Assembly: GCA_040289515.1 (NCBI GenBank)
Contig: PSLI01000015.1
Coordinates: 1 to 43,959 of the forward strand
Reading direction: 5' to 3'
Length of the DNA: 43,959 nt
Source of the DNA: Candidatus Sysuimicrobiota bacterium
GTDB taxonomy: Bacteria; Sysuimicrobiota; Sysuimicrobiia; Sysuimicrobiales; Sysuimicrobiaceae
Shown here: positions 17,443 to 37,236 of the stretch, piece after piece
Layout of the letters: each line of letters begins with the position of its first letter
Numbering within the stretch: the stretch's first letter is position 1
Notes under the pieces: model-generated
Seen by the model: the letters and a program-made list of their open reading frames with translations, nothing else
Database searches by the model: none
What the model was told of the DNA's origin: nothing
Position numbers and translations under genes: made by a program

Positions 17443-17445
17443 CCG

Positions 17446-19472: not shown

Positions 19473-19473
19473 C

Positions 19474-20040: not shown

Positions 20041-20087
20041 GGCCGTGGACCCACTACCGGCTGTCGTGGCGCGCACTGGAGGTGCAA

Positions 20088-21272: not shown

Positions 21273-21296
21273 GGTCAGCTCCGCAGCCGGTGGAGC

Positions 21297-21346
21297 TTGA
21301 CAGCCGGGCCGGCAGGCGCTACGTATTTGGTATACATGTATTCCAA
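21297..21346 (+). promoter_or_regulatory. Putative sigma70 promoter with GntR/FadR-type operator
   Basis: TTGACA (21297-21302), 17 bp spacer, weak -10 TACGTA; palindrome TTGGTATACA/TGTATTCCAA (21327-21346, one mismatch) spans the ATG. Confidence 0.65.
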
Positions 21347-22031
21347 CATCGCGATCGACTTCGGGCGTGCGGCCACTATCGCGGACGCCGCGTACGTGGC
21401 GCTTCGAAATGCCATCGTCTTCGGCGAGCTGCCTGCGGGGCACCGGCTCCTCGAGCGGGAGCTCGCCCTGCGGCTCGCGGTGAGTCGAACCCCGATCCGG
21501 GAGGCGCTGCGGAGGCTTTCCGAGGAGGGCCTCGTGTCAGGCGTGCCCAACCGCGGCTTCGTGGTTCGGACGGTGGGGCTTCAGGAGGCCGAGCACGTCT
21601 ATACTGTGCGTCAACCGCTGGAAGTTCTGGCGGCGCAGCTGGCAGCCGGCCGGTGTACGCCCCGAGATCTGGCCGAGCTGGAGGGATGCTTGGTGCGTGC
21701 AGAGCGCGCGGCCGCCGCGGGCGACTGGCGCACGGTGATCCAGGAGAACAACGCCTTCCACGACCTGATCGCACGCGCCTCCGGCAACCCCGTACTCACA
21801 CGGATGCTGGACCTTTTGCGCAACCAGGTGAACCTGGTACGGATGGCCCTGTGGGCCCGCATGCCGAGCCGGCCCACGGAGACCTTGCGCCAGCACCGGG
21901 AGATTCTCGAGGCCCTGCGGCGACGGGATCCGCAGGCTGCAGGGGCTGCTGCCCAGGCACACCTTCGGAGCTCTTGGCGCAGTCTCTGGCAGGCCCTCCA
22001 GAAGGAAGGCAGCGGGAGGGAGCCTGCGTGA
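21336..22031 (+). CDS. GntR family (FCD) transcriptional regulator
   Basis: 'LRNAIVFGELPAGHRLLERELALRLAVSRTPIREAL', FCD 'NNAFHDLIARASGNPVL...QHREILEAL'. Confidence 0.92.
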   Translation: MYSNIAIDFGRAATIADAAYVALRNAIVFGELPAGHRLLERELALRLAVSRTPIREALRRLSEEGLVSGVPNRGFVVRTVGLQEAEHVYTVRQPLEVLAAQLAAGRCTPRDLAELEGCLVRAERAAAAGDWRTVIQENNAFHDLIARASGNPVLTRMLDLLRNQVNLVRMALWARMPSRPTETLRQHREILEALRRRDPQAAGAAAQAHLRSSWRSLWQALQKEGSGREPA

Positions 22032-22092
22032 GGCCTGGCGGCAGCCGGTGGTGGGGGACGCTGTCGGGGACAGTTTGCTAGGGAGGTAGAGG

Positions 22093-23064
22093 ATGGCGGA
22101 TCCGGCCGTGCTGCGACGGAGCGCGCACAACCTCCTCTTGAATGCCGCAGGAGTGCGGCCGGGGGAGGGGCTCTGCGTCGTGGCAGACACCCAGACGCGT
22201 CCCATCGCCGACGTCCTGTTCGAGGTTGCGCGGGAGGTGGGAGCGGAGCCTGTATTGGTGTGCATGGTCCCGCGCCGTACCCACGGCAACGAGCCGCCGC
22301 CAGTGGTCGCCGGGGCCATGCGGGGGGCGGACGTGGTGATCCAGGCGGTTACATACGCCATCACCCACACCGACGCCACTCAGGAAGCCCTCCGGGCCGG
22401 TGCCCGGGTGCTGGTCCTGCGGGGGGTTACGGAGGACGTGCTCACCGGAGGTGCGGCGCTGGCAGATTACGGGGAGGTGGCCCGGATTACGAAGGCGGTG
22501 GCGGAACGTCTGACGCAGGCGTGCACCGCCCACGTGCGGACCCCGGCGGGGACGGACCTCGTGATGAGCCTGGAAGGCCGTACGGCGATTGCCCTGACCG
22601 GCCGGGTGGAGGGCCCCGGGACGTTCGCCGCAATGCCGGACGGGGAGGCTGCCATTGCGCCGGTGGAGGGAACCGCGGAGGGGATTCTGGTGGTGGAGCA
22701 CACCATGGACGGGATCGGCCCGCTGGAGGAACCGATCCGGTTGGTGGTCCGTCAGGGGCGGGTGGTGGAGGTGACGGGCGGGGAAGCGGCCACCCGTCTG
22801 CGGGCCCTGCTGCATGGGGCAGACAAAGACGCGGTCAACCTCGCGGAGTTCGCCATCGGCACGAACCGCTGGGCGCGCCTGATCGGCTCCATGACGGAAG
22901 ACAAGAAGCGGTGGGGGACCGTCCATGTAGCGGTGGGCGACAACCACGTGATCGGCGGCCACGTGACGAGCGAGCTGCACCTCGACGGCCTTCTGCTCCG
23001 GCCTACGGTGACCCTCGACGGCCAGGTGGTGGTTGAGGACGGTCGGCTTCTCATCGGAGGGTAG
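22093..23064 (+). CDS. Peptidase M29 / aminopeptidase T-fold protein (possibly NicX-like, non-peptidase)
   Basis: 'HGNEPP', 'PDGEA', 'LAEFAIGTN', 'GTVHVAVGDN', 'HLDG'. Confidence 0.8.
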   Translation: MADPAVLRRSAHNLLLNAAGVRPGEGLCVVADTQTRPIADVLFEVAREVGAEPVLVCMVPRRTHGNEPPPVVAGAMRGADVVIQAVTYAITHTDATQEALRAGARVLVLRGVTEDVLTGGAALADYGEVARITKAVAERLTQACTAHVRTPAGTDLVMSLEGRTAIALTGRVEGPGTFAAMPDGEAAIAPVEGTAEGILVVEHTMDGIGPLEEPIRLVVRQGRVVEVTGGEAATRLRALLHGADKDAVNLAEFAIGTNRWARLIGSMTEDKKRWGTVHVAVGDNHVIGGHVTSELHLDGLLLRPTVTLDGQVVVEDGRLLIGG

Positions 23065-23067
23065 CGG

Positions 23068-23733
23068 ATGCGGTGGGTGGACCTCACGATCCCCTGGGGG
23101 CCCGACGTGCAGCCCGTGCCGGGCCACCCCCACATCTTCTACGTGCCGATCCACCACCACGAGCTGCACGGCCTCTCCACCGGATTCGCCACCTTCAGCC
23201 TCCACACCGGCACCCACGTGGATGCGCCCTACCACTTCGTTGCGGACGGTCTCACCATGGACCAGGTGCCGCTGGAATGGCTGTGCGGGCCCGCGGTTCT
23301 CGTTGACCTCCGGCCCTACGCGGAACCGCGGCGCCCCTTCACCCTCCAGCAGCTGCAGGCGGCCGTGGGGGATCCCAAGGAGCTACAAGACCGGCGCGCG
23401 GTTCTGTGGAGCGGGTGGGCCCAGGACCACTGGAGCGACGCGTCCTTCTACCGGGATCACCCGTACCTGTCTGTGGAGGCGGCGCGGTGGCTGGTGGAGG
23501 TCGGGGTGCGGGCGGTGGCGGTGGACTTCGCGGTGGACGGGGGATTGCCGGAGCCCGGAGAGCCGCGCTACCCGGTCCATCGCATCCTCCTCGGGGCCAA
23601 CGTGTGCTTGATCGAGAACCTCATCAACCTGGACCGGATTGGGCGGCGCGTGTTCAACCTCTTGGCCATGCCGGTCCCCGTGAAGGGCGGAAACGGGGGC
23701 CCCGCGCGGGTGGCGGCGCTGGTGGAACCATGA
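23068..23733 (+). CDS. Cyclase / kynurenine-formamidase (KynB)-family metal hydrolase
   Basis: HxGTHxDxPxH motif 'HTGTHVDAPYH', 'VHRILLG...LIENL', 'GGPARVAA'. Confidence 0.9.
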   Translation: MRWVDLTIPWGPDVQPVPGHPHIFYVPIHHHELHGLSTGFATFSLHTGTHVDAPYHFVADGLTMDQVPLEWLCGPAVLVDLRPYAEPRRPFTLQQLQAAVGDPKELQDRRAVLWSGWAQDHWSDASFYRDHPYLSVEAARWLVEVGVRAVAVDFAVDGGLPEPGEPRYPVHRILLGANVCLIENLINLDRIGRRVFNLLAMPVPVKGGNGGPARVAALVEP

Positions 23734-24155
23734 CCGTTCGCGGGATCCACCACATCGGGGTCGTGGTGAAGGATGCCGAGGCTGCCGCGCGGCGCCTGGA
23801 GGAAGCGCTGGGCGTGCGGGTGGTTCACTGGGAGGACTACGGGCCCGGCCTCCTTCGCATCGGGTTTGTCCCGGTGGGCGGGACCCTCATCGAGCTGATC
23901 GAACCGCTCGGGGACGAGACAAACGCCCGCTGGCTGGAGGAGCACGGGGAGGGTGTACAGCACATCGCGCTGGAAGTGGAGGACGTAGGGGCCGCCATCG
24001 AGGAGCTCACCAGGCGCGGCGTGGCCATGCGGGATGCGGTTCCTCGGGCAGGAGCCGGGAACACCCTCATCGCTTTCCTTCAGGGAACGATGGCAGGCAT
24101 GTGGCTGGAGCTGACCCAGCCGTTGGGGGAGGCACCGTGGCGCGGGTTGCGGTGA
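23730..24155 (+). CDS. VOC family protein (methylmalonyl-CoA epimerase-like)
   Basis: 'IHHIGVVV', 'IELIEP', 'GEGVQHIALEV', 'LELTQ'; ATGA overlap. Confidence 0.85.
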   Translation: MTVRGIHHIGVVVKDAEAAARRLEEALGVRVVHWEDYGPGLLRIGFVPVGGTLIELIEPLGDETNARWLEEHGEGVQHIALEVEDVGAAIEELTRRGVAMRDAVPRAGAGNTLIAFLQGTMAGMWLELTQPLGEAPWRGLR

Positions 24156-24979
24156 TTCAATTGGTGGGTCCGTGGTCCGATCCGGACGCGGTGCGCGCCC
24201 GCACGGTTGCGTTGTTGGAGGAGGCTGCTCGAAGGGGTGCGGAGCTGGCCGTGCTGCCCGAGCTGTGCACCGTCTCCTACGACCTGGGGGGGCGACAGGA
24301 GGTTTGGGCTGTCGCGGAGTCCCTGGAGGGTCCCAGCGTGGTCGCGTGGGTCGCTGTCGCACGTCGATGGGGGCTCTTCGTGGTGGCTGGCCTGCCCGAG
24401 CGCGCAGGGGATCGGCTGTACAACACCGCGGTCCTGGTGGGCCCGGAGGGGGTGAGGGGGGTTTACCGCAAGGCCCACCTGTATGGGCAGGAGCGGGAGG
24501 TGTTCGACCGCGGGGACGAGGGGTTCGGTGTCTGGGACCTGCCCGTGGGGCGGGTGGCAGCCCTGCTGTGTTACGATTTGCGGTTCGCGGAGGCGGTGCG
24601 GATCCTGCTCCTGCGCGGCGTGCACCTGCTGTGTGTGCCCACCACGTGGACGGACCAGGGAAAGCCACAACCCTGGGACGACCGGGGCTGGTGCGGGGCC
24701 AACTACCTCGCGGCCGGCCACGCCTACGGGAACCGGATGTGGGTGGCATGCGCGGATCGGGCAGGGCAGGACGGGAGGGTGCGGACCCTGGGGTGCAGCG
24801 CAGTCTTTGCGCCCACCGGGTACGCGGCCGTGGGGCCCGCTCCCCCGGATGCGGAGGCGATTCTGGTGGCCGACTGCGATCTTCGGGCGGTGGAGGAGAT
24901 GCGCCAGGCCGCAGGAGCGGACCTCGTGGCCGACCGGCGGCCCGAGCTGTATGGTGAGCTGGTGGGCCAACGGAGGTGA
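24137..24979 (+). CDS. Carbon-nitrogen hydrolase (nitrilase superfamily amidase)
   Basis: E-K-C triad in 'VLPEL', 'YRKAHL', 'LLCYDLRF'; C-terminal 'DRRPELY'. Confidence 0.92.
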   Translation: MARVAVIQLVGPWSDPDAVRARTVALLEEAARRGAELAVLPELCTVSYDLGGRQEVWAVAESLEGPSVVAWVAVARRWGLFVVAGLPERAGDRLYNTAVLVGPEGVRGVYRKAHLYGQEREVFDRGDEGFGVWDLPVGRVAALLCYDLRFAEAVRILLLRGVHLLCVPTTWTDQGKPQPWDDRGWCGANYLAAGHAYGNRMWVACADRAGQDGRVRTLGCSAVFAPTGYAAVGPAPPDAEAILVADCDLRAVEEMRQAAGADLVADRRPELYGELVGQRR

Positions 24980-24983
24980 GGGG

Positions 24984-25781
24984 ATGGAGCTGGGACTGCA
25001 GGACAAAGTGGTGTTCATCACGGGTGGATCAAAGGGGATCGGCCGGGCCTGTGCGATGGAGTTCGCCCGGGAGGGAGCACGGGTGGCCATCTGTGCCCGC
25101 ACGGAGGCCGCGCTGCAGGAGGCAGCCCGGGCTATCCAGCAGGCCACCGGGCGGCCGGTCTTCTGGATCGCGGGGGATATGATGAAGCCCGAGGACCCAC
25201 CCCGGTGCATCGACGCCACCGTGGCCCACTACGGGAGGCTCGACATCCTTGTGAACTGTGCGGGAGCCTCCCCCGGTGGGGTGCTGCTGAACCTGACGGA
25301 GGAAGACTGGGCCCTCAGCTTGCAGCTGAAGTTCATGGGCTACGTACGGTGCTGCAAGGCGGCCATCCCATACATGCTGCGGCAGGGTGGCGGATGCATC
25401 GTGAACGTGGTGGGGAACGACGGGATCAAACCCGCGTACTGGGAGCTGACGGCAAGCGCAGCCAACGCCGCAGATCTCGCGGTCACCTCGGCTCTGGCGG
25501 AACAGTACGGCCGGCTGGGGATCCGGGTCAACGCCGTCAACCCCGGGCCGGTGGCCACGGAGCGGTGGGATGGGTTGGTGGCCGCGTACGCGCGGGACAA
25601 GAACCTGTCGCTGGACGAGGCGCACCGGCGCGCGGTGCGCAGTATTCCCCTCGGGCGGATCTGCACGCCGGAGGAGGTGGCATCTGTGGTGGCCTTCGTG
25701 GCGAGCGAGCGGGCCAGCTTTATGAACGGTGCCTGGATCACCCTCGACGGAGGGCAGCGGAAGGCTCTGATGGATCTTTGA
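24984..25781 (+). CDS. SDR family oxidoreductase (atypical active site)
   Basis: 'ITGGSKGIG', 'NCAG', 'VNAVNPGPV'; no YxxxK ('ASAANAA' instead). Confidence 0.88.
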   Translation: MELGLQDKVVFITGGSKGIGRACAMEFAREGARVAICARTEAALQEAARAIQQATGRPVFWIAGDMMKPEDPPRCIDATVAHYGRLDILVNCAGASPGGVLLNLTEEDWALSLQLKFMGYVRCCKAAIPYMLRQGGGCIVNVVGNDGIKPAYWELTASAANAADLAVTSALAEQYGRLGIRVNAVNPGPVATERWDGLVAAYARDKNLSLDEAHRRAVRSIPLGRICTPEEVASVVAFVASERASFMNGAWITLDGGQRKALMDL

Positions 25782-25799
25782 GGCCAAGGGAGGGGGAAC

Positions 25800-27005
25800 A
25801 TGCGGATTGCAGCGATCGTGACGAGCGTGGTGCTCTTGGGCGCAGCCGCGATGGCTGCGCCCGGCCCTTCGGTCATCAAGATCGGGGGGACGCTGGCGGT
25901 GACGGGCCCCTTCGCAGCGGAGTGGGGGCCGGTGTATCAGGAGTTCATGCGCGAGTGGGCCCGGGTGACGAACGAGGAAGGGGGATGGCTGGTCCGGGAG
26001 CTGGGGCGGAGGCTGCCGGTGGAGATGGTGCTGTACGACGACGAGAGTTCGCCCGACAAGGCTGTGGAGCTTTATGAGCGGCTTGCGGCGGTGGACAACG
26101 TGCTCCTTTTCTTCGGTCCGGCGACGAGTCCGATCACCCTGCGGGCCTCCACGGTGGCGGAGCGCCTGCGAATCCCCATGGTGACCATGGAGGCGAACGA
26201 CCGGGCGATCTTCGCCCGGGGATTCCGGTACCTCTTTGGCACCCTAGCGCCCGGGTTGTGGTGGACGCGCAGCTACTTCGAGCTGGTTCGGCAGAGCGTG
26301 GAGGCGGGAGCGCCGCTGCGTAGCATCGCCTTCGTGTACGAGGACTCGGCACACACGCGGGACGTGGCTGCGGGCGCGATTGCGTACGCGCGGGAGACGG
26401 GGCTTCGGGTGGTGGACGACCAGCTGGTTCCGTTTGGCCACTTGGACTTTTCGGCCATCCTGGCCCGCTGGCGTTCCCTGAATCCGGATATCGCCTTCGT
26501 GGGACTGTGGACGGGACCAGCCATCGCCTTCGTGAGGCAGGCGCGGGAGCTCGGGCTGCGGCCGAGGGAGATGTACGTGCGGGCCTTGGCGTACCCCTTC
26601 GTTCAGGCGGTGGGCGGCGCCGCGGAGGGTGTGGTGGGTGCCACCTACACGGCGCGGCGGGCGCTGGATGAGCGGGCCCACAAAATTTTCCACCGCATGG
26701 GTCGGGACTCCTACGATCTTCCGTGGGTGGCAAACCGCTTGGTGGCGCTGGACGTCCTGCGGGCAGCGGTCGAGCGGGCGGGTCGGTTGGACCGGGAGAC
26801 CATCGCGGAGGTCATGCGGGATCCGAAATTTGAAGTGAAGACGGTGATCGGGACCTTCCGGTTCAGCTGGAACCTTCGGATCGCGGGTCAGGTGCTGAAC
26901 GGCCACGGTAACCAGACGGCCTACGTGGCCCAGATCCAGGGCGGAAAAGTGCAGGTGGTGTGGCCGCGGGCAGTGGCGGACGCGGCTTACCGGCGCCCGC
27001 GGTAG
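25800..27005 (+). CDS. Branched-chain amino acid-type (LivK-like) ABC substrate-binding protein
   Basis: Signal peptide, 'IKIGGTLAVTG', 'YDDESSP', 'QIQGGKVQVVWP'. Confidence 0.88.
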   Translation: MRIAAIVTSVVLLGAAAMAAPGPSVIKIGGTLAVTGPFAAEWGPVYQEFMREWARVTNEEGGWLVRELGRRLPVEMVLYDDESSPDKAVELYERLAAVDNVLLFFGPATSPITLRASTVAERLRIPMVTMEANDRAIFARGFRYLFGTLAPGLWWTRSYFELVRQSVEAGAPLRSIAFVYEDSAHTRDVAAGAIAYARETGLRVVDDQLVPFGHLDFSAILARWRSLNPDIAFVGLWTGPAIAFVRQARELGLRPREMYVRALAYPFVQAVGGAAEGVVGATYTARRALDERAHKIFHRMGRDSYDLPWVANRLVALDVLRAAVERAGRLDRETIAEVMRDPKFEVKTVIGTFRFSWNLRIAGQVLNGHGNQTAYVAQIQGGKVQVVWPRAVADAAYRRPR

Positions 27006-27009
27006 GGCC

Positions 27010-27741
27010 GTGCTGCTGGAGGTGCGCGGCGTCTCCAAAAGGTTCGGCGGGGTGATGGCCCTGAACGGGGTCAGCATGGCCGTGGCGGAGGGTGAGCTGG
27101 TGGGCCTCATCGGCCCGAACGGGGCCGGCAAGACGACGCTGTTCCACGTGATTGCGGGTTTTCTAAAACCGGACGCGGGCAGCATCCGGTTTGCGGGGCG
27201 CGAGATCGGCGGGCTGCCGCCGCACCGGATCTGTCAGCTAGGGATTGCCCGGACGTTTCAGATCGTCCAGCCCTTCGAGGCCCTGAGCGTGCTGGACAAT
27301 GTGGCGGTGGCGTACCTGTACGGGCGGTGGGGTCGCGGCGCGTCGGTTCGGAAAGCCCGGGAGGCTGCGCAGCGGTTTTTGGAACGGGTGGGGCTGCTGG
27401 ATCGGGCCGGTGACGCCGCGGGTACGCTGAACCTTTCCGAGCGGAGGCGGGTGGAGCTGGCGCGGGCTGTGGCCACCGGCCCGCGATTGCTTTGCTTGGA
27501 CGAGGTGATGTCGGGGTTAACGCACGGCGAGCTTGGACCCATGAGCGAGACGGTGCGACGGCTTGGGGAGGAGCTGGGGCTGACGGTGCTCATGGTGGAA
27601 CACAACGTGCGGCTGGTACGGGAGCTGTGCCCGCGGGTGGTCGTGCTTCATTACGGGCAGGTGATCGCGGACGGTCCCCCTGAGGCGGTGATGAGAGAGC
27701 CGAGTGTGGTGAGCGCTTATCTTGGGGAGCGGGATGCTTGA
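27010..27741 (+). CDS. ABC ATP-binding protein (LivG-like)
   Basis: 'GLIGPNGAGKTT', 'IARTFQ', 'LDEVMSGL', 'VEH'. Confidence 0.9.
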   Translation: MLLEVRGVSKRFGGVMALNGVSMAVAEGELVGLIGPNGAGKTTLFHVIAGFLKPDAGSIRFAGREIGGLPPHRICQLGIARTFQIVQPFEALSVLDNVAVAYLYGRWGRGASVRKAREAAQRFLERVGLLDRAGDAAGTLNLSERRRVELARAVATGPRLLCLDEVMSGLTHGELGPMSETVRRLGEELGLTVLMVEHNVRLVRELCPRVVVLHYGQVIADGPPEAVMREPSVVSAYLGERDA

Positions 27742-28438
27742 GGTACGGTCCCTGGAGGTGCGGTACGGAGACTTCGTGGCCGTTCACGGGATCTCCTTGG
27801 CGGTCCGCCAGGGGGAAGCGGTGGCCCTGCTGGGGCCCAACGGTGCGGGGAAGACGACGGTTCTGCGGGCAATTCACGGGCTTGTGCCGATGTACTCCGG
27901 CACCCTGTCCTACAAGGACCGCTCGCTGGTGGGGCTTCCGACGTGGGAACGGGTCCGGCTGGGAATCGCGCTGGTCCCCGAAGGCAGGGAGCTGTTCGGC
28001 GGGATGCGGGTGGAGGAGCACCTGGAGCTGGGGTTCGTTCCCGGACGCGGGCGGTCGTATGACTCCCTCCGCGCGGAGGTGTACGAACTCTTCCCGGTCC
28101 TCGCGGAGCGGCGCCGGCAGGTGGCCGGGACGCTGTCGGGCGGGGAGCAGCAGATGCTGGCCATCGCCCGGGCCCTCATGTCCGCGCCGGAACTGTTGAT
28201 GTTGGACGAGCCGTCCCTGGGGCTGGCGCCTCGTGTGGTGCGAGCGCTGTACGAGAAGCTGGCGGTGCTGCGCCGGCGGGGTCTTACCCTGATCGTGGTG
28301 GAGCAGTACGTGCACGAGGTTCTGCGCCTGGCGGATCGTGCGTACGTCCTGGAGGGAGGTCGGATCGTGCTGGAGGGGGGAGCGGAGGGGCTTTTGCGGG
28401 ATCCACGGCTGCAGCGCACGTACCTGGCGGTGTCGTGA
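27734..28438 (+). CDS. ABC ATP-binding protein (LivF-like)
   Basis: 'GPNGAGKTT', 'LSGGEQQMLAIARALM', 'LDEPSLGLAP'. Confidence 0.9.
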   Translation: MLEVRSLEVRYGDFVAVHGISLAVRQGEAVALLGPNGAGKTTVLRAIHGLVPMYSGTLSYKDRSLVGLPTWERVRLGIALVPEGRELFGGMRVEEHLELGFVPGRGRSYDSLRAEVYELFPVLAERRRQVAGTLSGGEQQMLAIARALMSAPELLMLDEPSLGLAPRVVRALYEKLAVLRRRGLTLIVVEQYVHEVLRLADRAYVLEGGRIVLEGGAEGLLRDPRLQRTYLAVS

Positions 28439-28439
28439 G

Positions 28440-29333
28440 ATGACGCTTCAGCTCATGACGGAACTGCTGGCGGGTGGAGCTGTCCTGGGAGGCCTGTACG
28501 CCCTCATGGCCTTCGCGTTTTCCTTGGTGCTGGCGACCACGCACGTACTGAACGTGGCCCACGGGACGTTTATGGTGCTGGGTGCCGCCCTGAGCACGCT
28601 GCTGGTGAGGGAAGCGCACCTGCCGTTCGTGGTGAGTGTTGCCTTGGTGTTTGGGACGTTCCTGTTGGCGGGGTGGGCTTTTGAGGAAGGATTGATCCGG
28701 CCGTTGCAGGGGCGGCCGCCGGTGCAGGTGCTGGTGGGGTCGATTCTGGTGACGTTCGGGGTGGCCATCACGGCAGAGGCGTTGCTGGGATATTACTGGG
28801 CGCGGGCAGTCGAGCCGCAGCCGATCTTTGCGGTGGAGCTGGGCCTGCCCTCGCTGCGGGTCGGGGGTGTGGCGATTTCGGGCCCGCGGGCGTTGGCCCT
28901 GGTGTTCTCCGTTGTGGCGGTGGCTGTCCTTCACGTGCTTCTAACCCGCACCCGTCTGGGCCAGCAGGCAAGGGCAGTGGCGCAGAACCGGGTGGGTGCC
29001 CTGGTGATCGGGATCCAGCCGTCGCGGGTCGCGCGCACGGTGCTGACGGTGAGCGTGGCTGCGGCGGGGCTGGCAGGGACGTTTTATGCCGTGGCGGTGC
29101 CGCTGAACCCGTATGAAGGGCTCCGGCTCACCATGGTGGCGTTCACGGTGGCCGCGGCGGGAGGAATCGGGAACCTTCCGGGTGCCCTGTGGGCGGGGGT
29201 GGGACTGGGGATCGCGGAAGTGCTGACCGGCTACTGGGCCGGGGCGGTCTGGTCGCCGGTGACGTACCTGCTGGTGCTGTTCGGTGCGTTGCTGGCGCGA
29301 CGCGGGGAGGCGGTGCGGGGGCTGGTTCGATGA
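28440..29333 (+). CDS. ABC permease (LivH-like)
   Basis: 'GGLYALMA', 'NVAHG', 'RTRLG...RAVAQN', 'GGIGNLPGA'. Confidence 0.9.
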   Translation: MTLQLMTELLAGGAVLGGLYALMAFAFSLVLATTHVLNVAHGTFMVLGAALSTLLVREAHLPFVVSVALVFGTFLLAGWAFEEGLIRPLQGRPPVQVLVGSILVTFGVAITAEALLGYYWARAVEPQPIFAVELGLPSLRVGGVAISGPRALALVFSVVAVAVLHVLLTRTRLGQQARAVAQNRVGALVIGIQPSRVARTVLTVSVAAAGLAGTFYAVAVPLNPYEGLRLTMVAFTVAAAGGIGNLPGALWAGVGLGIAEVLTGYWAGAVWSPVTYLLVLFGALLARRGEAVRGLVR

Positions 29334-30310
29334 GGTGGGCGGGGCTGGCTGTTCTGTTGGTGGTGCTGGTGCTGGCGCCGCGGTGGCTCGGCCGGGACCT
29401 CACCACGGCACTTCTGTTCACCTTCCTGCTGGTGGTGCTGGCCTGCAACTATGACCTTGTTGGTGGGTACCTGGGGCTGTACAACCTGGGCCAAGCCAGC
29501 TTTTTCGGGCTCGGCGCGTACACCACGTTCCTGCTGCTGCGGGTGCCGGGGCTGAGCTCCCTGGGCAGCGGCGGAGCAGCGCTGGCGGTCCTGGCAGGAG
29601 GGCTGGTGGCGGCAGGGTCGGCGGCGTTGGTGGCGTACCCGCTGCTGCGCCTGCGGGAGGCGTCCTTCGCGGTGGGCAGCTTCGGACTGCTGTTGTTCCT
29701 GCGGGTCCTCGTGGACAACCTCCCCGGCGTCACCGGGGGGTCCCATGGGCTCTACGTGGCTGCCGGGCATTACCTGTCCCTGGGAACGGCGTACGGGTTG
29801 TTGCTGGCCTTGGCGGCAGGTTCCGTGGCGCTGAACTGGTTGGTCGAGCGGAGTCGGATGGGGCTGGCGATGCTCGCGATCCGGGAAAGTGAGGCGGCGG
29901 CCGCCGCGGTGGGGATCAACCGCTTTCGGGTTCAGCAGATGGCGTTCGTGCTGGGAGCACTCCCCACCGGGCTGGCCGGGGGGGTGTTCGGACTCCATAC
30001 GGGCTACATCGATGTTTCGGTGGTGTTGGGGATCGAGCGCAGCTTGCTGCCGGTGATCGCTGCGATGCTGGGGGGAACTGGTTCCTTGTGGGGTCCGGTG
30101 GTAGGCTCGGTGATGCTGCGGGCCATCGACGTGGGTCTGAAGAACTACCTACAGTTGCCCGTGCCTTCCCCTGCGGTGTACGGCCTCGTGCTGACGCTGA
30201 TCGCGTTGCGGATGCCCCGGGGCATCGTAGCGCACCTGGGGCGTGGGCGCGTGCAGGGAAGGGAAGCCGCGCGGGCAGCCCCGGTGGTTCAGGCGGAGGA
30301 GGTTTCATGA
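29330..30310 (+). CDS. ABC permease (LivM-like)
   Basis: 'GGYLGLYNLGQASFFGLGAY', 'AIRESEAAA', 'GGTGSLWGPVVG'. Confidence 0.9.
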   Translation: MRWAGLAVLLVVLVLAPRWLGRDLTTALLFTFLLVVLACNYDLVGGYLGLYNLGQASFFGLGAYTTFLLLRVPGLSSLGSGGAALAVLAGGLVAAGSAALVAYPLLRLREASFAVGSFGLLLFLRVLVDNLPGVTGGSHGLYVAAGHYLSLGTAYGLLLALAAGSVALNWLVERSRMGLAMLAIRESEAAAAAVGINRFRVQQMAFVLGALPTGLAGGVFGLHTGYIDVSVVLGIERSLLPVIAAMLGGTGSLWGPVVGSVMLRAIDVGLKNYLQLPVPSPAVYGLVLTLIALRMPRGIVAHLGRGRVQGREAARAAPVVQAEEVS

Positions 30311-31188
30311 AGCCGCCGACCTTTGACTACTACGACCCGGCGACCCTGGAAGAGGCGCTGGAGCTGATGGAACGGTACGGGTCGGAGGCGAAGGTGCTGG
30401 CCGGCGGACAGAGTCTGATGCCCCTCCTGAACCTGCGCTTAGCGCGGCCTTCGGTTCTCGTGGATCTGAACCGGATCCCGGGGATGGACGGCGTGGGGCG
30501 GGAGGACGGCTGGCTCCGGGTGGGAGCCCTGGCGCGACAGTGGGACGTGGAGCACGCACCGGAGGTGGTTCGGCATCTGCCGGTCCTGCGGGAGACGCTT
30601 CGGTTCGTGGCACATCCCCAGATCCGGATGCGCGGAACGGTGGGGGGGTCCATCGCCCACGCGGATCCCGCGGCGGAGTTGCCGGCGGTCCTGGTGTGTT
30701 TGGACGGCGAGGTTGTGGCTTACCGCCGGGGCGGGATGCGCATCATCGCCGCCCGGGAGCTATTCGTGACGTACCTCACCACCAGCCTGGAACCCACTGA
30801 GATCCTCACGGAGGTACGGTGGCCCATCCCGCCGGCCGGCACCGGCTGTGCGTTTGTGGAGCTGGCACGCCGCCACGGAGACTACGCGCTGGTGGGGGTG
30901 GCGGCCCTGCTGCGTTTGGCGCCGGACGGATCGGTGGTGGAGGGGCGGATCGCCCTCGCCGGTTGCGGTCCGGTGCCGGTGCGGGCCCGGGAGGCGGAGA
31001 AGACCCTGCTCGGGGCGAGGCCTTCCGAGGAGTTGTGGGAGGAGGTAGGGCGACAGGCGGCCTCCGCGGTGGACCCGCCCTCGGACCTGCACGCCTCCAG
31101 CGCGTACCGCAGGCACGTGGCCGCCGTCCTGGTAGCCCGGGCGCTGCAGCTAGCTTGCGACCGCGCCCGTGGGGAGGAAGAAGGATGA
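30307..31188 (+). CDS. Molybdenum hydroxylase FAD-binding (medium, CoxM/XdhB-like) subunit
   Basis: 'KVLAGGQSLMP', 'AHPQIRMRGTVGGSIAHADPAAE', 'RRHGDYA'. Confidence 0.92.
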   Translation: MKPPTFDYYDPATLEEALELMERYGSEAKVLAGGQSLMPLLNLRLARPSVLVDLNRIPGMDGVGREDGWLRVGALARQWDVEHAPEVVRHLPVLRETLRFVAHPQIRMRGTVGGSIAHADPAAELPAVLVCLDGEVVAYRRGGMRIIAARELFVTYLTTSLEPTEILTEVRWPIPPAGTGCAFVELARRHGDYALVGVAALLRLAPDGSVVEGRIALAGCGPVPVRAREAEKTLLGARPSEELWEEVGRQAASAVDPPSDLHASSAYRRHVAAVLVARALQLACDRARGEEEG

Positions 31189-31673
31189 GGGAGCGCGTCC
31201 GAACCGTCCGCTTGAGCGTCAACGGCAAAGTTTACGAGGTCACGGTGGAGACCCGCAAGACCCTCGCAGATGCCATCCGGGAGGACGTGGGACTCACCGG
31301 CACGCATCTTGGCTGCGAGCACGGAGTCTGCGGGGCGTGCACGGTGCTGTTGGACGGACGCCCCGTACGGAGCTGTCTTCTCCTTGCTGTCCAGGCGGAG
31401 GGCCACGAGGTCACCACGGTGGAGGCGCTGGGAACTCCGGAGCAGCTGCACCCGATCCAGCGCGCCTTCTGGGAGCACCACGGGCTTCAGTGTGGGTTCT
31501 GCACACCGGGAATCCTCATGAGTACGGTCTGGTTCCTCCAGCAGAACCCGCGTCCGAGCCGTGAGGAGATTCGGGAGATGCTGGCCGGGCACCTGTGCCG
31601 CTGCACCGGCTACCTTCAGATCGTGGAGTCCATCGAGGCGGCCGCGCGCGCTTTTGGTGAGGGCACTCCGTGA
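31185..31673 (+). CDS. Molybdenum hydroxylase [2Fe-2S] (small, CoxS-like) subunit
   Basis: 'GCEHGVCGACTV...SC', 'QCGFCTPG', 'CRCTGY'. Confidence 0.93.
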   Translation: MRERVRTVRLSVNGKVYEVTVETRKTLADAIREDVGLTGTHLGCEHGVCGACTVLLDGRPVRSCLLLAVQAEGHEVTTVEALGTPEQLHPIQRAFWEHHGLQCGFCTPGILMSTVWFLQQNPRPSREEIREMLAGHLCRCTGYLQIVESIEAAARAFGEGTP

Positions 31674-33994
31674 AGCGGGCGGTCGGCCGGTCGATGGCTC
31701 GGCGGGAGGACCTCCGACTGCTCACGGGGCGGGGCCGGTACGTGGCTGACCTGCGGTTGAGTGGGATGCACCAGGTGGCCTTCGTCCGGAGCCCGTATCC
31801 GCACGCCCGGATCCGCTCGGCTCGGGTACCCAACGGGATGGTGTGTCGCGCAGGTGACTTGGAGGGGGTCCGCCCCATCGCACCGCGGTGGGACGGGGAG
31901 GGGTTCCTGCGGACAGAACAGCCCCCCCTGGCCCGGGACGTGGTGCGGTACGTGGGCGAACCGGTGGCGGTGGCCGTCGCGCCGACCCGGTACGAGGCGG
32001 AGGATCTGGCGGAGCAGGTTCAGGTGGAGTACGAGCCGCTTGTCCCCATCCATGACGTGGACGTCGCCCTCTCGCCGGGGGCCCCGAAGCTCCACGCGGA
32101 CAACGTGCTGTACCGGCGCAGCCACCTCCACGGAGATCCGGAGGAGGTGTTCCGGCGAGCTGAGGTGGTCGTGCAAACAGCGATCCGCTCGGCACGGTGT
32201 ACCGCGGCGCCCCTGGAGGGCCGGGGGGTCACCGCCTGGTACGATGGCAACACGTTGTGGGTTTGGACGAACACGCAAACGCCCTCCTTGATCCGGTCCG
32301 CCCTCGCGCAGTGCCTGGACCTTCCGGAGACGGCCGTGCGGGTCCTCGTGCCGGACACGGGCGGAGCGTTTGGCCAGAAGATGCACCTTTATCCGGAAGA
32401 GATCGTGGTGAGTTGGCTGGCGCTCCGCCTGGGTGTGCCGGTCCAGTGGGTGGAAGATCGATGGGAAAACCTGCTGGCGTCAACGCAAGCGAGGGAGGAG
32501 CGGATGGAGGTGGAACTGGCGGCGCGTTCCGACGGTCGGATCCTGGCCCTGCGGGTGCGGATCGTGGGGGACGTGGGAGCCTACCACGTGTTTCCCACAA
32601 CTGCAGCGCTGGAGCCGTTGGGGGCGGCTCAGATCCTGCCGGGGCCGTACGACGTGCCGCACTACGCGTACGAGGTGTTGGCCGTGGCCACCAACAAGCC
32701 GCCCACCGGTGCCTACCGCGGGGTGGGGATGACGGTGGGCGTGCTGGCCATGGAGCGGGCGGTGGATCTGCTGGCAGCCCGGGTGGGGCTGGATCCCGTG
32801 GAAGTGCGGCGCCGCAACCTGATCCGGGAGGGCCGGTTCCCGTACACAAGCGCCAGCGGGTTGGTGTACGACGGGGGCTCCTTCGCAGAGGCGCTGGAAC
32901 GCGCCTGTGCGCTGGCGGACTACAGGCGGCTTCGAAGGGAACAGGAGGAGGCCAAGCGGCAAGGGAAATGGATGGGGATTGGGATTGCGTGCTACGTGGA
33001 ATACACGGGGCTTGGCTCCGCCACCTTCCGGCGGCGCGGCATGGTGGAGGTTCCTGGCCACGAGGGCGCAGCGATTCGAGTGGAACCGGACGGAACGATT
33101 CAGGTAAGGGTCAGCTTTCCCCATCAGGGGCAGGGGCACGAGACCACGCTGGCGCAGCTCGTGGCGGACGCTGTCGGCTGCCCCGTGGAACGTGTGCGGG
33201 TTGAGCGGGTGGACACGGGAGCCTCGCCGCACGGCTCCGGTACCTTCGCGAGCCGCAGTTCCGTGGCGGGCGCAGGCGCGGTGCTGGCAGCCGTGGAACA
33301 GGTGCAGCAGCGGGCCCGGGCCGTGGCGGCGGCTCTGCTCGAGGCGTCTTTGGAGGACGTGGTGTGGGAAGGGGAGCGATTTTTCGTTCGGGGCGCGCCG
33401 GGCCGGGCCGTGACCTTCGCGGAGGTGGCTGAGGCGGCGTATCGGGTGCCAGGAGTGCGCTCCGTCTCGCCCGGCTTGGAGGCGGTGGCCTACTTCGATC
33501 CTCCCCCGGCCACGTTTTCGAACGGGGTCCACGTGGCGGTCGTCGAGGTGGACCCGGAAACGGGTCTGGTGCGGATTCTGGGCTACTTCGTGGCAGAGGA
33601 TTGCGGGCGGATCATCAACCCCCTCGTGGTGCGGGGACAGCTGTGCGGGGCAGTGGCACAGGGTATCGGGGAAGCCCTGCTGGAACACGCGGCGTACGAC
33701 GACCAGGGGCAACCCCTGGCCACAACCTTTATGGATTATCTCATCCCCACGGTTTGGGAGGTGCCGGACAGCCTTGAGGTCGTTCACCTGGAGCGACCGT
33801 CGGAGCGACCGGGGGGCTTCAAGGGCATGGGGGAGGGAGGTGCCATCGGGGCACCGGCCGCGTTGGCGAACGCAGTTGCGGATGCCGTGGGCGCGCCGGT
33901 GACGTGCCTTCCGCTTACGCCTGAGCTGGTTCTCGAGCTGGTGAAGCAGGGGAGGGCGGCCGGTGACGTGGATCGGGCAAGCCGTCCCGCGTAA
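31670..33994 (+). CDS. Xanthine-dehydrogenase-family molybdopterin-binding large subunit 1
   Basis: 'GGAFGQK', 'AYRGVG', 'QGQGHET', 'GTFASRS', 'KGMGEGG'. Confidence 0.92.
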   Translation: MKRAVGRSMARREDLRLLTGRGRYVADLRLSGMHQVAFVRSPYPHARIRSARVPNGMVCRAGDLEGVRPIAPRWDGEGFLRTEQPPLARDVVRYVGEPVAVAVAPTRYEAEDLAEQVQVEYEPLVPIHDVDVALSPGAPKLHADNVLYRRSHLHGDPEEVFRRAEVVVQTAIRSARCTAAPLEGRGVTAWYDGNTLWVWTNTQTPSLIRSALAQCLDLPETAVRVLVPDTGGAFGQKMHLYPEEIVVSWLALRLGVPVQWVEDRWENLLASTQAREERMEVELAARSDGRILALRVRIVGDVGAYHVFPTTAALEPLGAAQILPGPYDVPHYAYEVLAVATNKPPTGAYRGVGMTVGVLAMERAVDLLAARVGLDPVEVRRRNLIREGRFPYTSASGLVYDGGSFAEALERACALADYRRLRREQEEAKRQGKWMGIGIACYVEYTGLGSATFRRRGMVEVPGHEGAAIRVEPDGTIQVRVSFPHQGQGHETTLAQLVADAVGCPVERVRVERVDTGASPHGSGTFASRSSVAGAGAVLAAVEQVQQRARAVAAALLEASLEDVVWEGERFFVRGAPGRAVTFAEVAEAAYRVPGVRSVSPGLEAVAYFDPPPATFSNGVHVAVVEVDPETGLVRILGYFVAEDCGRIINPLVVRGQLCGAVAQGIGEALLEHAAYDDQGQPLATTFMDYLIPTVWEVPDSLEVVHLERPSERPGGFKGMGEGGAIGAPAALANAVADAVGAPVTCLPLTPELVLELVKQGRAAGDVDRASRPA

Positions 33995-36323
33995 GGAGGA
34001 TCCCCGGCTCCTCACGGGCCGGGGCCGGTTCGTGGCGGACATCCAGCCGCCCGGCGTGGCCCACATGGTCGTGGTGCGGAGCACGCATGCGCACGCGCGG
34101 ATCCTTGGGGTGAACCTGTCGGAGGCCCGGGCGCAGCCGGGGGTTTTCCTGGCGAAGGCGGCGCGGGACTTCGATCCTCCGTTCCCGAGGCTTCCCCCCA
34201 TCGTGAGCCATCCGGCGATGCGCCACGCCATGCCGTACGTGTTGGCCGAGCAGGTGGTGCGGTACGTGGGGGAGCCCGTGGCCGTGGTGGTGGCGCGGAA
34301 CCGGTACGAGGCGGAGGACGCAGCAGAGCGCGTGGAGGTGTCTTACGAGGAGTTGCCGGCCGTGGTGGATCCGGAGGCGGCCCAGCGGGCGGACTCACCG
34401 CAGCTCCATCCGGAGGCGCCGGGGAACGTGATGGCGTATGTACCGATCCGCGTCGGGGATCCGGGAACTGCCTTCGGGCGGGCGGATCACGTAATTCGGG
34501 CGCGACTGCGGATCCGGCGGTGTAGTCCTCAACCCATGGAAACGCGGGCGGTGGTGGTGGAGCCGGATCTTCGGGGTGGGCGACCTGAATTGCGGGTGTG
34601 GCTCACCACGCAGTCGCCCCACACCGCGCGGCGGATCCTGGCGTATGTCCTGGGGATGGAGGAAGAGCGGATCCGGGTGATCGCGCCAGACGTAGGGGGT
34701 GGCTTTGGAGCGAAGAACCGCTTCTACCCCGAGTACGCTCTGGCCGCGCGCCTCGCGCTGGAGCTGGGCCGGCCGGTGAAATGGGTGGAGGACCGGGTGG
34801 AGGATTTCCTGTCCACCTATCAGGAGCGGGACCAGATTCAGGAACTGGAGTTGGCGTTGGATGCGGAGGGACGGGTGTTGGGCCTGCGGGGCCGCGTGGT
34901 GAGCGACAACGGGGCCTACGACTCCAGCTTTGGCATTGTCCCGCCCCTGACGACGGCCATGACGTTGGTGGGGCCGTACCGGATCCCGAACATCGCGGTG
35001 GACGTGGTCTGCGTCTACACCCATAAGACCCCGTTGGCTCCCTACCGGGGAGCGGGACGGCCCCAGGGAGTTTTCGGGATCGAGCGGCTGATGGACTTGG
35101 CAGCGGATGCCCTCGGTCTGGACCCGGCGGAGCTGCGCCGGCGGAACCTGCTGTCCCCGGAGGATCTGCCGTACGACACGGGCGTGCCACGCCGGGATGG
35201 GCTGGGCACCATGGTGTACGACTCCGGGGACTACCCCGCGCTGTTTCAGCGGGCGCTGGGGCTGCTGGACTACGAGGGCTGGCGGGCGCGGCAGCGGGAG
35301 GCGTGGCGGGCCGGTCGGTACATCGGGATCGGGGTGGTGCCGTACGTGGAGATGTCAGGGCTTGGCCTCTACGAGACCGCCACCGTGCGGGTGGGCTCCT
35401 CGGGCAGGATCCACGTGTACGCGGGGTGCGCCTCGCAGGGGCAAGGGCACGAGACGGTGCTGGCCCAGATCGTGGCGGAGCGGCTGGGCGTGCGGTTCGA
35501 GGACGTGGAGGTGGTGGTGGGAGACACTGGGCTGGTCCCAACCGGCATCGGTACGTTTGCAAGCCGATCCGCGGTGGCTGCCGGCAATGCGGTGCGGGAG
35601 GCCGCGCTTCTTGTGCGGAGCAAAGCGTTGCGGGTCGCCGCACACTTGCTGGAGGCATCCCCGGACGATCTGGAGCTGACGGACGGGGTGGTGCGGGTGC
35701 GGGGAGCCCCCGACCGGGCGGTCGCCCTGCGGACCCTGGCCCAGCTGGCGTCGGGGCCGAACCTGGATGCTACGCGGGTCCCGCGGGGTCTTCGGTTTTC
35801 TGCCGACCTGCAGCCGGGGCTGGAGGCCACCTACTCCTTTGACGCCGGCGCCTTGAACTACGCCTACGGCACGCACGCGGCGGTGGTGGAGGTGGATCCC
35901 AGGACGGGGTTCGTACGCATCCTGCGATACGTCATTGCCCACGACTGCGGGGTCGAGCTGAACCCGGCCTTGGTGGAAGGGCAGGTGCTTGGGGGATTCG
36001 CGCAGGGGATTGGGAACGCGCTGTACGAGGAGCTGGTCTGGGACGGGGCGGGGCAACCCCTGGTGCGGACCTACGCGGACTACCTGATTCCGACAGTAGG
36101 GGAGGTTCCGGAGGTGGTGGTGGTCCACACGGAGACGCCGTCGCCGAGCAACCCGGAAGGGGTCAAGGGGGTGGGAGAAGGGGGGACGATGCCGGTCCCG
36201 GCTGTGTTGAATGCGGCCGCGGAGGACGCCCTGCGGCCGTTCCGCGTACGGCTCCTAGAAAGTCCGCTTCGGCCGGAGCACGTGCTGGAGGCGCTGGGAG
36301 AGCTGAGCCCAGAGGGCCGGTAG
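33963..36323 (+). CDS. Xanthine-dehydrogenase-family molybdopterin-binding large subunit 2
   Basis: 'GGGFGAK', 'PYRGAGRP', 'QGQGHET', 'GTFASRS', 'KGVGEGG'. Confidence 0.92.
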   Translation: MTWIGQAVPRKEDPRLLTGRGRFVADIQPPGVAHMVVVRSTHAHARILGVNLSEARAQPGVFLAKAARDFDPPFPRLPPIVSHPAMRHAMPYVLAEQVVRYVGEPVAVVVARNRYEAEDAAERVEVSYEELPAVVDPEAAQRADSPQLHPEAPGNVMAYVPIRVGDPGTAFGRADHVIRARLRIRRCSPQPMETRAVVVEPDLRGGRPELRVWLTTQSPHTARRILAYVLGMEEERIRVIAPDVGGGFGAKNRFYPEYALAARLALELGRPVKWVEDRVEDFLSTYQERDQIQELELALDAEGRVLGLRGRVVSDNGAYDSSFGIVPPLTTAMTLVGPYRIPNIAVDVVCVYTHKTPLAPYRGAGRPQGVFGIERLMDLAADALGLDPAELRRRNLLSPEDLPYDTGVPRRDGLGTMVYDSGDYPALFQRALGLLDYEGWRARQREAWRAGRYIGIGVVPYVEMSGLGLYETATVRVGSSGRIHVYAGCASQGQGHETVLAQIVAERLGVRFEDVEVVVGDTGLVPTGIGTFASRSAVAAGNAVREAALLVRSKALRVAAHLLEASPDDLELTDGVVRVRGAPDRAVALRTLAQLASGPNLDATRVPRGLRFSADLQPGLEATYSFDAGALNYAYGTHAAVVEVDPRTGFVRILRYVIAHDCGVELNPALVEGQVLGGFAQGIGNALYEELVWDGAGQPLVRTYADYLIPTVGEVPEVVVVHTETPSPSNPEGVKGVGEGGTMPVPAVLNAAAEDALRPFRVRLLESPLRPEHVLEALGELSPEGR

Positions 36324-36424
36324 GCCTGCGATCCGGCGGACAGGCTCCGAGGCAGTGCTCTCCAGGGGGGATCGACCCTCACGGGATCTTCACAGGTAAG
36401 CGAAAGCCAGGGGAGGTGCGGATC

Positions 36425-37118: not shown

Positions 37119-37160
37119 GACGAAAGCCGGGCGTCCGCGCCGGGAAGCCAGGTGCTACCG

Positions 37161-37236
37161 TGGTGGGCCGTGAGGGACTCGAACCCCCGACGCCCGGGTT
37201 AAAAGCCCGGCGCTCTACCCGCTGAGCTAACGGCCC
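37161..37236 (-). tRNA. tRNA-Lys (anticodon TTT), CCA encoded
   Basis: GGGCCGTTAGCTCAGCGGGTAGAGCGCCGGGCTTTTAACCCGGGCGTCGGGGGTTCGAGTCCCTCACGGCCCACCA: 76 nt cloverleaf with TTCGA T-loop. Confidence 0.97.

Follow-up and report, generated by a model that had tools for sequence, protein, structure and literature searches.

A 43,959-nucleotide stretch of DNA from a Candidatus Sysuimicrobiota bacterium (GenBank assembly GCA_040289515.1, contig PSLI01000015.1; the whole stretch is called the window here) carries a real and conserved 15-gene operon that is probably an undescribed variant of N-heterocycle catabolism initiated by molybdenum (Mo) hydroxylases. The operon (21336..36323, + strand) encodes a GntR regulator, a short M29-fold protein, a cyclase, a vicinal oxygen chelate (VOC) protein, a C-N hydrolase, an atypical short-chain dehydrogenase/reductase (SDR), a five-gene Liv-type ATP-binding cassette (ABC) transporter, and a Mo hydroxylase with a FAD subunit (M), a 2Fe-2S subunit (S) and two large subunits (L1 and L2). 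From comparison with relatives, we give somewhat better than even odds to the general scheme, i.e., uptake, two hydroxylations, NADPH reduction, and imide and amide hydrolysis of a six-membered N-ring. That the substrate would be nicotinate or a close 3-substituted pyridine, with degradation ending in glutarate, is a tentative proposal to which we give somewhat less than an even chance. A search of the open-access literature, with most subscription journals outside it, found no description of the gene set; partial overlap with the Bacillus niacini cluster is possible, and the comparison with that cluster is one of pathway descriptions.

Conservation of the operon

Gene content, gene order, conservation and active-site residues are what we observe directly. 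As the preliminary description of this DNA had it, all 15 genes are uninterrupted and co-directional (GC content at third codon positions, 0.81-0.90), and most of them are tightly joined: with the chosen starts, eight of the 14 junctions overlap (-4 five times, -8, -19 and -32), five have gaps of 1-18 bp, and the gap between GntR and the M29 gene is 61 bp. A Pfam search of the 15 proteins returned the families that had been named by eye. It also agreed that neither a flavin monooxygenase nor a maleate isomerase of the Asp/Glu-racemase type is present among the 15 genes, a negative that covers the operon and not the remainder of the genome. The host genome is 1.99 Mb in size, with 70% GC and 96.7% completeness, and the metagenome-assembled genomes that carry close homologs are labeled Armatimonadota by NCBI.

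All 15 genes recur in the same order, across two contigs, in a second genome (G009), with 64-84% identity for 14 of them and 47% for GntR, so the gene order is not a matter of chance. An SDR ortholog is found in 21 of 94 genomes of the host phylum (the window's genome and G076 counted) and in none of the seven other genomes of the genus, four of which are at least 94% complete. Nineteen other SDR loci were fetched from the phylum, several on short contigs: 15 have a Mo large subunit, 11 have the cyclase and the VOC protein, and seven have the M29 protein as well. A metagenome scan with an alignment of the M29 protein gave 80 loci, and one identical to the window was dropped. At M29 identities of at least 50% there are 43 loci, 22 of them informative (at least 3 kb downstream); below 50% there are 36, with 21 informative. 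The cyclase, VOC protein and SDR occur together in 16 of the 22, with a large subunit too in 14, and the C-N hydrolase is present in 11 of the 22 and in 11 of the 16 loci that have the core (M29 protein, cyclase, VOC protein and SDR), counts that are not independent because several loci are near duplicates or kin. None of the 21 informative loci below 50% carries a cyclase, VOC protein, SDR, large subunit or C-N hydrolase. Conserved co-occurrence, which the preliminary description had proposed to look for, is therefore seen in the metagenomes. The core is kept at 36-61% identity, its order is shuffled in L073 and L086, and the transporter is freely exchanged.

Outside the phylum, the SDR ortholog occurs in seven of 301 Burkholderiales and three of 301 Alphaproteobacteria genomes, without the M29 protein, cyclase or VOC protein. 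Of these 10 loci, four have an amidohydrolase-2 gene after the gene for a Mo large subunit, five have an amidase-signature enzyme, and three have a shared alpha/beta hydrolase. Because these proteobacterial loci do without the other core genes, the SDR and the Mo enzyme appear to be the constant part of the system, and the hydrolase sets seem to be interchangeable. The ortholog was also found in one of 401 genomes of a Dehalococcoidia-centered class and in none of 351 of an Anaerolineae-centered class, where misses are possible because only six to eight candidates were scored per genome. A GTDB pattern scan with L1 gave 13 loci, none with the core; it is silent on the range of the system because the peptides are too specific to the window's L1. 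Plasmid searches found no plasmid with the cluster, and the regions examined held no syntenic cluster (L037 and L040 are informative otherwise).

Predicted functions of the enzymes

The SDR (24984..25781, 265 aa) is the best-conserved enzyme of the operon. Its best solved relative is AerF at 168 bits (next best, 144), which is an NADPH-dependent reductase of an alkenal double bond according to the available part of one source (PMC13256417) and a reference title in another (PMC10143770). The Ser and YxxxK of classical SDRs are missing, with G144 and TASAANAA at those places. K116, Y120 and N161, which we take to be the BacG catalytic set (the literature searched did not confirm it), are conserved in at least 95% of 33 aligned sequences and align with AerF; R39 is conserved too. 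The protein thus resembles the atypical SDR ene-reductases AerF and BacG/YwfH in the absent YxxxK and in the aligned KxxGY and NAA motifs. It differs from them in that they are biosynthetic and in that the motif GNDGxKxxYWE, with its conserved GNDGxK, is specific to the window's SDR subfamily. An ESM Atlas search returned generic SDR names only. The SDR is predicted to be an NADPH C=C reductase, and a reductive step in the pathway is therefore implied.

The last four genes of the operon encode the Mo hydroxylase: M (30307..31188) and S (31185..31673), both assigned by Pfam, L1 (31670..33994, 774 aa), and L2 (33963..36323, 786 aa, 44% identical to L1). The best solved relative of L1 is quinoline 2-oxidoreductase (E 3e-180), and that of L2 is KdhL, the 6-hydroxypseudooxynicotine dehydrogenase (E 1e-164); NdhL and KdhL between them carry out the C2 and C6 hydroxylations of the pyridine ring of nicotine. 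Both large subunits retain the catalytic Glu motif, and neither reaches a CO dehydrogenase (CODH), xanthine dehydrogenase (XDH) or aldehyde dehydrogenase model cut-off. In our trees (quick IQ-TREE and FastTree runs, with five distant rows left out of the second) there are three types of large subunit. The L1 type groups with NdhL (support 98). A second type shares a clade with KdhL (support 100 and 99) and comprises the second large subunit of most other loci and the large subunits of the proteobacterial loci. The window's L2 falls in a sister group of the KdhL clade. These are groupings that are suggestive only because NdhL and KdhL sit on long branches and the trees are quick ones. The host genome holds six Mo large subunits and no close paralog of the five non-redox or reductase enzymes; its XdhC-like and MocA-like maturation genes lie on another contig.

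Two enzyme identities were tried and rejected. L1 has AYRGVG and L2 has PYRGAGR where form I aerobic CODH presumably has its active-site loop AYxCSFR, and TIGR02416 gives 534 and 535 bits against a cut-off of 991. The XdhA model of canonical XDH gives 357 bits (L1) and 372 bits (L2) against a cut-off of 780, and L1 and L2 have Met and Asn at the place after GGGFGGK that we take to hold the substrate-binding Glu of XDH. These results bear on two alternatives. If the Mo enzymes were aldehyde or form-II CO oxidoreductases, the block would serve a non-heterocyclic amide or acid; the best NCBIfam scores do belong to glyceraldehyde dehydrogenase and CODH group 5 models, and the host has six such large subunits, but all scores are under cut-off, the solved relatives and tree neighbors are ring hydroxylases, and the linkage with three C-N hydrolases is conserved, which leaves this reading very improbable. 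Rather unlikely as well is a bicyclic substrate (purine, pteridine, quinoline or quinoxaline type) that is hydroxylated twice and opened by hydrolysis: L1 is closest to quinoline 2-oxidoreductase, and purine-nucleoside-deaminase-like and M20 genes precede the core in L078 and its kin, but L1 and L2 lie far under the XDH cut-offs, the presumed substrate-binding Glu is replaced, and the operon has no dioxygenase for a benzene ring.

The M29-fold protein (22093..23064, 323 aa) scores 53 bits with PF02073 (cut-off 27). Its structure model (pLDDT 91.9) has NicX (7cn3) as the top Foldseek match, with a TM score of 0.81 and 22% identity, and the preliminary description had likened it to this dioxygenase on account of the fold. 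In the available part of the source, the iron ligands of NicX are given as H265, S302, H318 and D320 (PMC7910607). They align with E252, A280, H296 and D298 of the M29 protein, i.e., two of the four are not kept; E177 and H189 of NicX align with L168 and A180, and H105 is kept as H92. Invariant in 23 sequences are E185, E252, H278, H296 and D298, of which E185 and H278 are extra in comparison with NicX. We take this E,E,H,H,D set to be the di-metal ligands of AmpT/AmpS/PepS-type aminopeptidases, and we rejected the NicX identity for this five-ligand set and the lost NicX residues. M29 aminopeptidases are presumably about 410 aa long and have their catalytic Tyr at the seventh position past the first His ligand; the protein here has H285 at that place, and the host carries a separate full-length M29 protein. 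The short family counts 1011 proteins at E 1e-40. R110, R262, K271 and K272 are invariant, and a 45% identical homolog in Haladaptatus adjoins tcuA and prpF. Paralog neighborhoods and these invariant residues suggest a hydrolase for a di- or tricarboxylate derivative, and in this operon we predict a di-metal amide hydrolase that acts on a ring-opened carboxylate.

Short M29-fold paralogs occur in 55 of the 94 genomes of the phylum, up to seven per genome. Those in L153, L155, L157 and L158 (47-50%) sit in clusters with GntR, tricarboxylate-transporter, PrpD and SDR genes, an uncharacterized organic-acid pathway.

The cyclase (23068..23733, 221 aa, PF04199, KynB/isatin-hydrolase fold) has the metal motif HxG(T/A)HxDxPxH as HTGTHVDAPYH, and LIE at residues 181-183; it is predicted to hydrolyze a cyclic imide. 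The nitrilase-family amidase (24137..24979, 280 aa), which is the C-N hydrolase mentioned above, has the triad E42/K112/C145 and is dispensable. Identity is 28% both between the cyclase and the 310-aa cyclase of an Arthrobacter kdhL operon and between the amidase and the C-N hydrolase of the same nic cluster. Among known pairs, PKC and HpoH are 77% similar and two omega-amidases share 47% (PMC6214936, available part), and HpoH is described without the I(L/I)E motif in the part of PMC6117287 at hand. Orthology with HpoH/HpoI was rejected on the two 28% identities and the LIE motif, the HpoH sequence itself not being part of the comparison.

The ring-opening route of the preliminary description, when spelled out, would pass through 2,5-dihydroxy- or 2,3,6-trihydroxypyridine, NicX-like or HpoH-like opening, deformylation and an omega-amidase, with the SDR perhaps in place of maleate isomerase. 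NicX is the closest fold and its H105 is kept, and the cyclase has a KynB-like formamidase motif. But the lost iron ligands and E177/H189, the two extra invariant metal ligands, and the 28% identities to the PKC/omega-amidase pair all oppose it, as does the result that five proteobacterial genomes with an SDR ortholog, four of which also have a KdhL-clade large subunit beside it, gave no M29/NicX match at E 1e-6. We see only a slim chance for this route. What holds from the earlier pathway reading is the uptake and breakdown of an N-heteroaromatic compound with two Mo hydroxylations, which the relatives of L1 and L2 support; the NicX and HpoH/HpoI analogies do not hold.

The VOC protein (23730..24155, 141 aa, with H8, E55 and H78 conserved) is closest to methylmalonyl-CoA epimerases, with TIGR03081 at 82 bits against a cut-off of 115, and is predicted to be an epimerase, tautomerase or decarboxylase. 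Uptake is assigned to the Liv-type solute-binding protein (SBP; 25800..27005, 401 aa) and its ABC partners, which by Pfam/NCBIfam families are a LivG-like ATPase (27010..27741), a LivF-like ATPase (27734..28438), a LivH-like permease (28440..29333) and a LivM-like permease (29330..30310). S79, T102, Y202 and E226 are, as we understand, leucine-binding residues of leucine-binding protein; the Ser is kept in the SBP, and N133, W237 and R261 stand where the other three would be. The SBP reaches only 65 bits with PRK15404 (LivJ/LivK; cut-off 477), so by sequence it is not the canonical amino-acid binder that would have spoken against the earlier reading. Its best solved relative binds L-pyroglutamate (PMC11485210, available part).

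Three features escaped the preliminary description, i.e., that the SDR is the best-conserved enzyme and ene-reductase-like, that the C-N hydrolase is dispensable, and that the second large subunit varies between loci.

Proposed pathway and candidate substrates

The substrate, all of the reactions and their order are what we infer from the observations above. The operon would import a compound of the pyridine-3-carboxylate type, with nicotinate released by NAD or nicotinamide turnover as the likeliest candidate, and its degradation is predicted to proceed without an oxygenase. L1 and L2, sharing M and S, would add water-derived oxygen at both carbons next to N, which would turn nicotinate into 6-hydroxynicotinate and then 2,6-dihydroxynicotinate, a tautomer of an unsaturated cyclic imide. 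The AerF-like SDR would then use NADPH to saturate the ring C=C, which would yield a glutarimide-type ring, and the VOC protein would epimerize, tautomerize or decarboxylate the malonyl-like C3 center. Subsequently, the cyclase would hydrolyze the imide and the M29 di-metal hydrolase would release ammonia; the nitrilase-family amidase may be a back-up or an entry enzyme for an amide substrate. The glutarate formed would pass to the host's predicted glutarate CoA-transferase and glutaryl-CoA dehydrogenase.

We favor nicotinate because of the NdhL/KdhL neighbors in the trees, a decarboxylase-like partner, glutarate genes in L145 and in the host, and a nicotinamidase-like neighbor. The partner is found in four of the 10 proteobacterial SDR loci, in which the SDR stands beside a KdhL-clade large subunit. 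After this subunit comes an amidohydrolase-2 whose nearest relatives are ACMSD and aryl-carboxylate decarboxylases; such an enzyme fits an ortho-hydroxy carboxylate such as 2,6-dihydroxynicotinate. One of these four loci, L145, has succinate:glutarate CoA-transferase-like and GcdH-like genes, and the host has 50%-identical relatives of both. A gene with what we take to be a nicotinamidase motif flanks L078, L083 and L087. The SBP adds that its closest relative binds a lactam-carboxylate (pyroglutamate) and that an Arg occupies the place of E226 of leucine-binding protein.

Several observations weigh against this reading. The named relatives are all distant, and the large subunits are less than 47% identical to the plasmid matches listed. 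The window's L2 lies outside the KdhL clade in both trees, NdhL and KdhL have long branches, and the pairing of large subunits varies between loci (A+C, A+B, B+C', or one only). The SBP match to the pyroglutamate binder is weak (E 2e-21). No known decarboxylase family is present in the window's operon. Glutarate genes are common housekeeping genes and turn up in only one of the 10 proteobacterial loci, and the gene that resembles nicotinamidase is convergent and confined to related genomes. A pyrimidine would account equally well for the nucleoside or nucleobase genes near five separate sets of loci: L078 and its kin have uridine-type nucleoside hydrolases, ribokinases and a deaminase; L059 has a nucleoside hydrolase, L086 a CodB-like permease and L160 an ABC transporter of the sugar/nucleoside type; and in Paraburkholderia (L037) a BMP transporter and a malonyl-CoA-synthase-like gene stand beside the SDR.

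The main rival to nicotinate is a pyrimidine or another (modified) nucleobase, which we regard as possible yet rather doubtful. The same oxygen-independent logic would apply: a base released from nucleosides would be oxidized to a barbiturate-type ring, and hydrolysis of that ring would give malonate or methylmalonate, with the VOC protein working on a methylmalonyl center. Beside homologous loci there are, as listed, nucleoside hydrolases, ribokinases, a deaminase, a CodB-like permease and BMP-type transporters. In L037 the SDR ortholog is accompanied by a crotonase-family gene and by the malonyl-CoA-synthase-like gene, which scores 533 bits against a cut-off of 558. The likeness of the VOC protein to methylmalonyl-CoA epimerases fits this reading, as do two methylmalonyl-CoA mutase homologs in the host, and three C-N hydrolases would suit a two-nitrogen ring. 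However, uracil needs just one hydroxylation, and barbiturate, by established chemistry, offers no C=C to the best-conserved enzyme. The L037 ligase lacks a close relative in the host (best, 31%), L037 shows no Mo enzyme within 12 kb, and the nucleoside neighbors could also be explained by nicotinamide riboside.

Isonicotinate or a similar 4-substituted pyridine was considered as well, which would go through citrazinate and 2,6-dioxopiperidine-4-carboxylate to tricarballylate or aconitate; an isonicotinate route is reported to exist in Mycobacterium INA1. This would suit the M29 homolog beside tcuA and prpF in Haladaptatus and the M29 paralogs with tricarboxylate transporters and PrpD. It is weakened because neither TcuA nor PrpF has a match at E 1e-8 in the 96.7% complete host genome, and a 4-carboxylate would presumably not suit the decarboxylase-like partner of the proteobacterial loci, so we hold it to be improbable.

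Some neighborhoods of homologous loci deserve description in their own right. Directly upstream of the core in L078 (298-9927) and its kin L079, L083, L087 and L088 stand two divergent sets of PRAI-like, PfkB kinase and nucleoside hydrolase genes, together with BtpA, an M20 deacylase and an MTA/SAH-type deaminase; the region looks like an undescribed nucleoside catabolism module. In the close relatives L059 (980-9100) and L160 (1118-7943), cupins, a second cyclase and another ABC transporter precede the operon, and L059 additionally has an aldehyde dehydrogenase and a nucleoside hydrolase upstream; a linked upstream pathway is possible. L037 (4192-14027, a plasmid of Paraburkholderia sp. 22B1P) has a run of a BMP-type ABC transporter, an alpha/beta hydrolase, a crotonase-family gene, a malonyl-CoA-synthase-like gene, the SDR ortholog and an amidase.

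Module borders, regulation and relation to described routes

The 15-gene block is a discrete insertion/deletion module (21266..37160), extending from the radical-SAM gene to the 3' end of tRNA-Lys(ttt) (37161..37236, - strand). In G004 and G007, two genomes of the same genus, 21 bp and 136 bp, respectively, separate the end of the radical-SAM gene from the 3' end of tRNA-Lys; the window has 15.9 kb at that place. Because of this empty site, and with the full 15-gene order in G009, the operon deserves the word self-contained that the preliminary description had used. No att duplication was seen between the module ends (longest direct repeat, 10 bp), nor any integrase at them, with no family-based integrase search made. 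An open reading frame at 36416-37160, inside the module, has a signal-peptide-like start, a Met/Gly-rich stretch and no Pfam match; its 3' end may be damaged because it runs into the antisense of tRNA-Lys. To the left (16642-21272), cytochrome oxidase-type subunits and then the radical-SAM gene are conserved in genus mates at about 80% nucleotide identity.

The GntR/FCD regulator (21336..22031, 231 aa, PF00392 and PF07729) has a near-perfect 20-bp palindrome, TTGGTATACATGTATTCCAA, across its start (21327..21346). Of the 6223 AT-rich 20-mers in the genome, only this one and one other reach a self-complementarity of 18/20 or more, and L059 and L086 have comparable palindromes where their GntR genes begin; we consider the site a putative autoregulatory operator. 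There is no convincing second site in the genome (the next best has four mismatches), so the site gives no clue to a regulon, and sigma-70 promoter and terminator scans found nothing. The motif AGGA(G/A)TC-N13-CAGAA, which resembles what we take to be a sigma-H-type promoter, precedes the cluster in 13 loci without an adjacent GntR (L014, L042, L044, L045, L046, L050, L061, L065, L066, L067, L069, L070 and L071); the whole G000 genome has only four looser matches. With this motif in loci that lack GntR, regulation of the cluster may differ between lineages.

How does the operon relate to described systems? The Arthrobacter nicotine pathway (NdhL, KdhL, DHPH, PKC and omega-amidase) and Rhodococcus HpoH/HpoI are alike in two Mo hydroxylations next to N and in a PF04199 cyclase and a nitrilase-family amidase downstream; unlike them, the operon has no flavin hydroxylase, has an extra SDR, VOC protein and M29 protein, and its cyclase and amidase are the distant ones described above. 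B. niacini uses a flavin monooxygenase for its trihydroxypyridine step, which the window's operon lacks, and its genes are reportedly laid out M-S-L-L, as they are here. The available part of PMC9304392 describes two successive Mo hydroxylations to 2,6-dihydroxynicotinate in B. niacini (nicotinate and 6-hydroxynicotinate dehydrogenases), as proposed here, and a continuation to 2,3,6-trihydroxypyridine, unlike our scheme. According to the same part of that source, the Aspergillus nidulans hxn pathway shares ring saturation by an alkene reductase, cyclic-imide hydrolysis and then amide hydrolysis, and differs in two oxygen-dependent hydroxylations, a reductase of the old yellow enzyme type, a PgdA-like imidase and a canonical Tyr/Lys SDR (PMC9304392). 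The Pseudomonas NicX/maleamate pathway shares the M29-like fold (TM 0.81), whereas the metal site and catalytic residues differ and the operon has no NicC-, NicD- or NicE-type genes. In Eubacterium barkeri, the nicotinate route uses a ferredoxin-linked reductase. As far as PMC9304392 is available, this THON route of E. barkeri and Azorhizobium resembles our scheme in hydroxylation, reduction and hydrolytic opening without an oxygenase; it differs in having one hydroxylation and a bifunctional enamidase, and those gene families are absent from the window's operon. The gene set for lumichrome catabolism, in the part of its description available, differs and was rejected as a match.

On the features tested, therefore, the operon is not a member of the NicX, HpoH/HpoI, CODH or XDH systems, and no high-identity characterized cluster was found, in line with the impression of the preliminary description that the combination is unrecognized. 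By analogy, it would work like a hybrid of the double hydroxylation of B. niacini or Arthrobacter and the fungal ending in which the ring is reduced and then hydrolyzed.

To our knowledge, the aerobic pyridine routes described in bacteria all depend on a flavin monooxygenase or a dioxygenase, and the anaerobic one on a special reductase and an enamidase. We put at about even the chance that several phyla share an undescribed oxygenase-free route for nicotinate or a nucleoside-derived base, in which a Mo hydroxylase acts together with a tyrosine-less SDR of a new subfamily that would dearomatize a dihydroxy-N-heterocycle with NADPH alone, followed by interchangeable hydrolases. The question can be taken to the bench because cultured Bacillota carry homologs of the M29 protein or the cyclase at 52-57% identity; Aneurinibacillus, Brevibacillus, Alicyclobacillus and Scopulibacillus are among the genera with matches. 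If true, this hydroxylate-reduce-hydrolyze route would run at low or no oxygen with any electron acceptor, and it might account for the recycling of vitamin B3 or nucleobases in uncultured lineages. Functions would also follow for two uncharacterized subfamilies, including the first for the short M29 family, and biocatalysis would gain ring hydroxylases that look thermostable, along with an imide ene-reductase.

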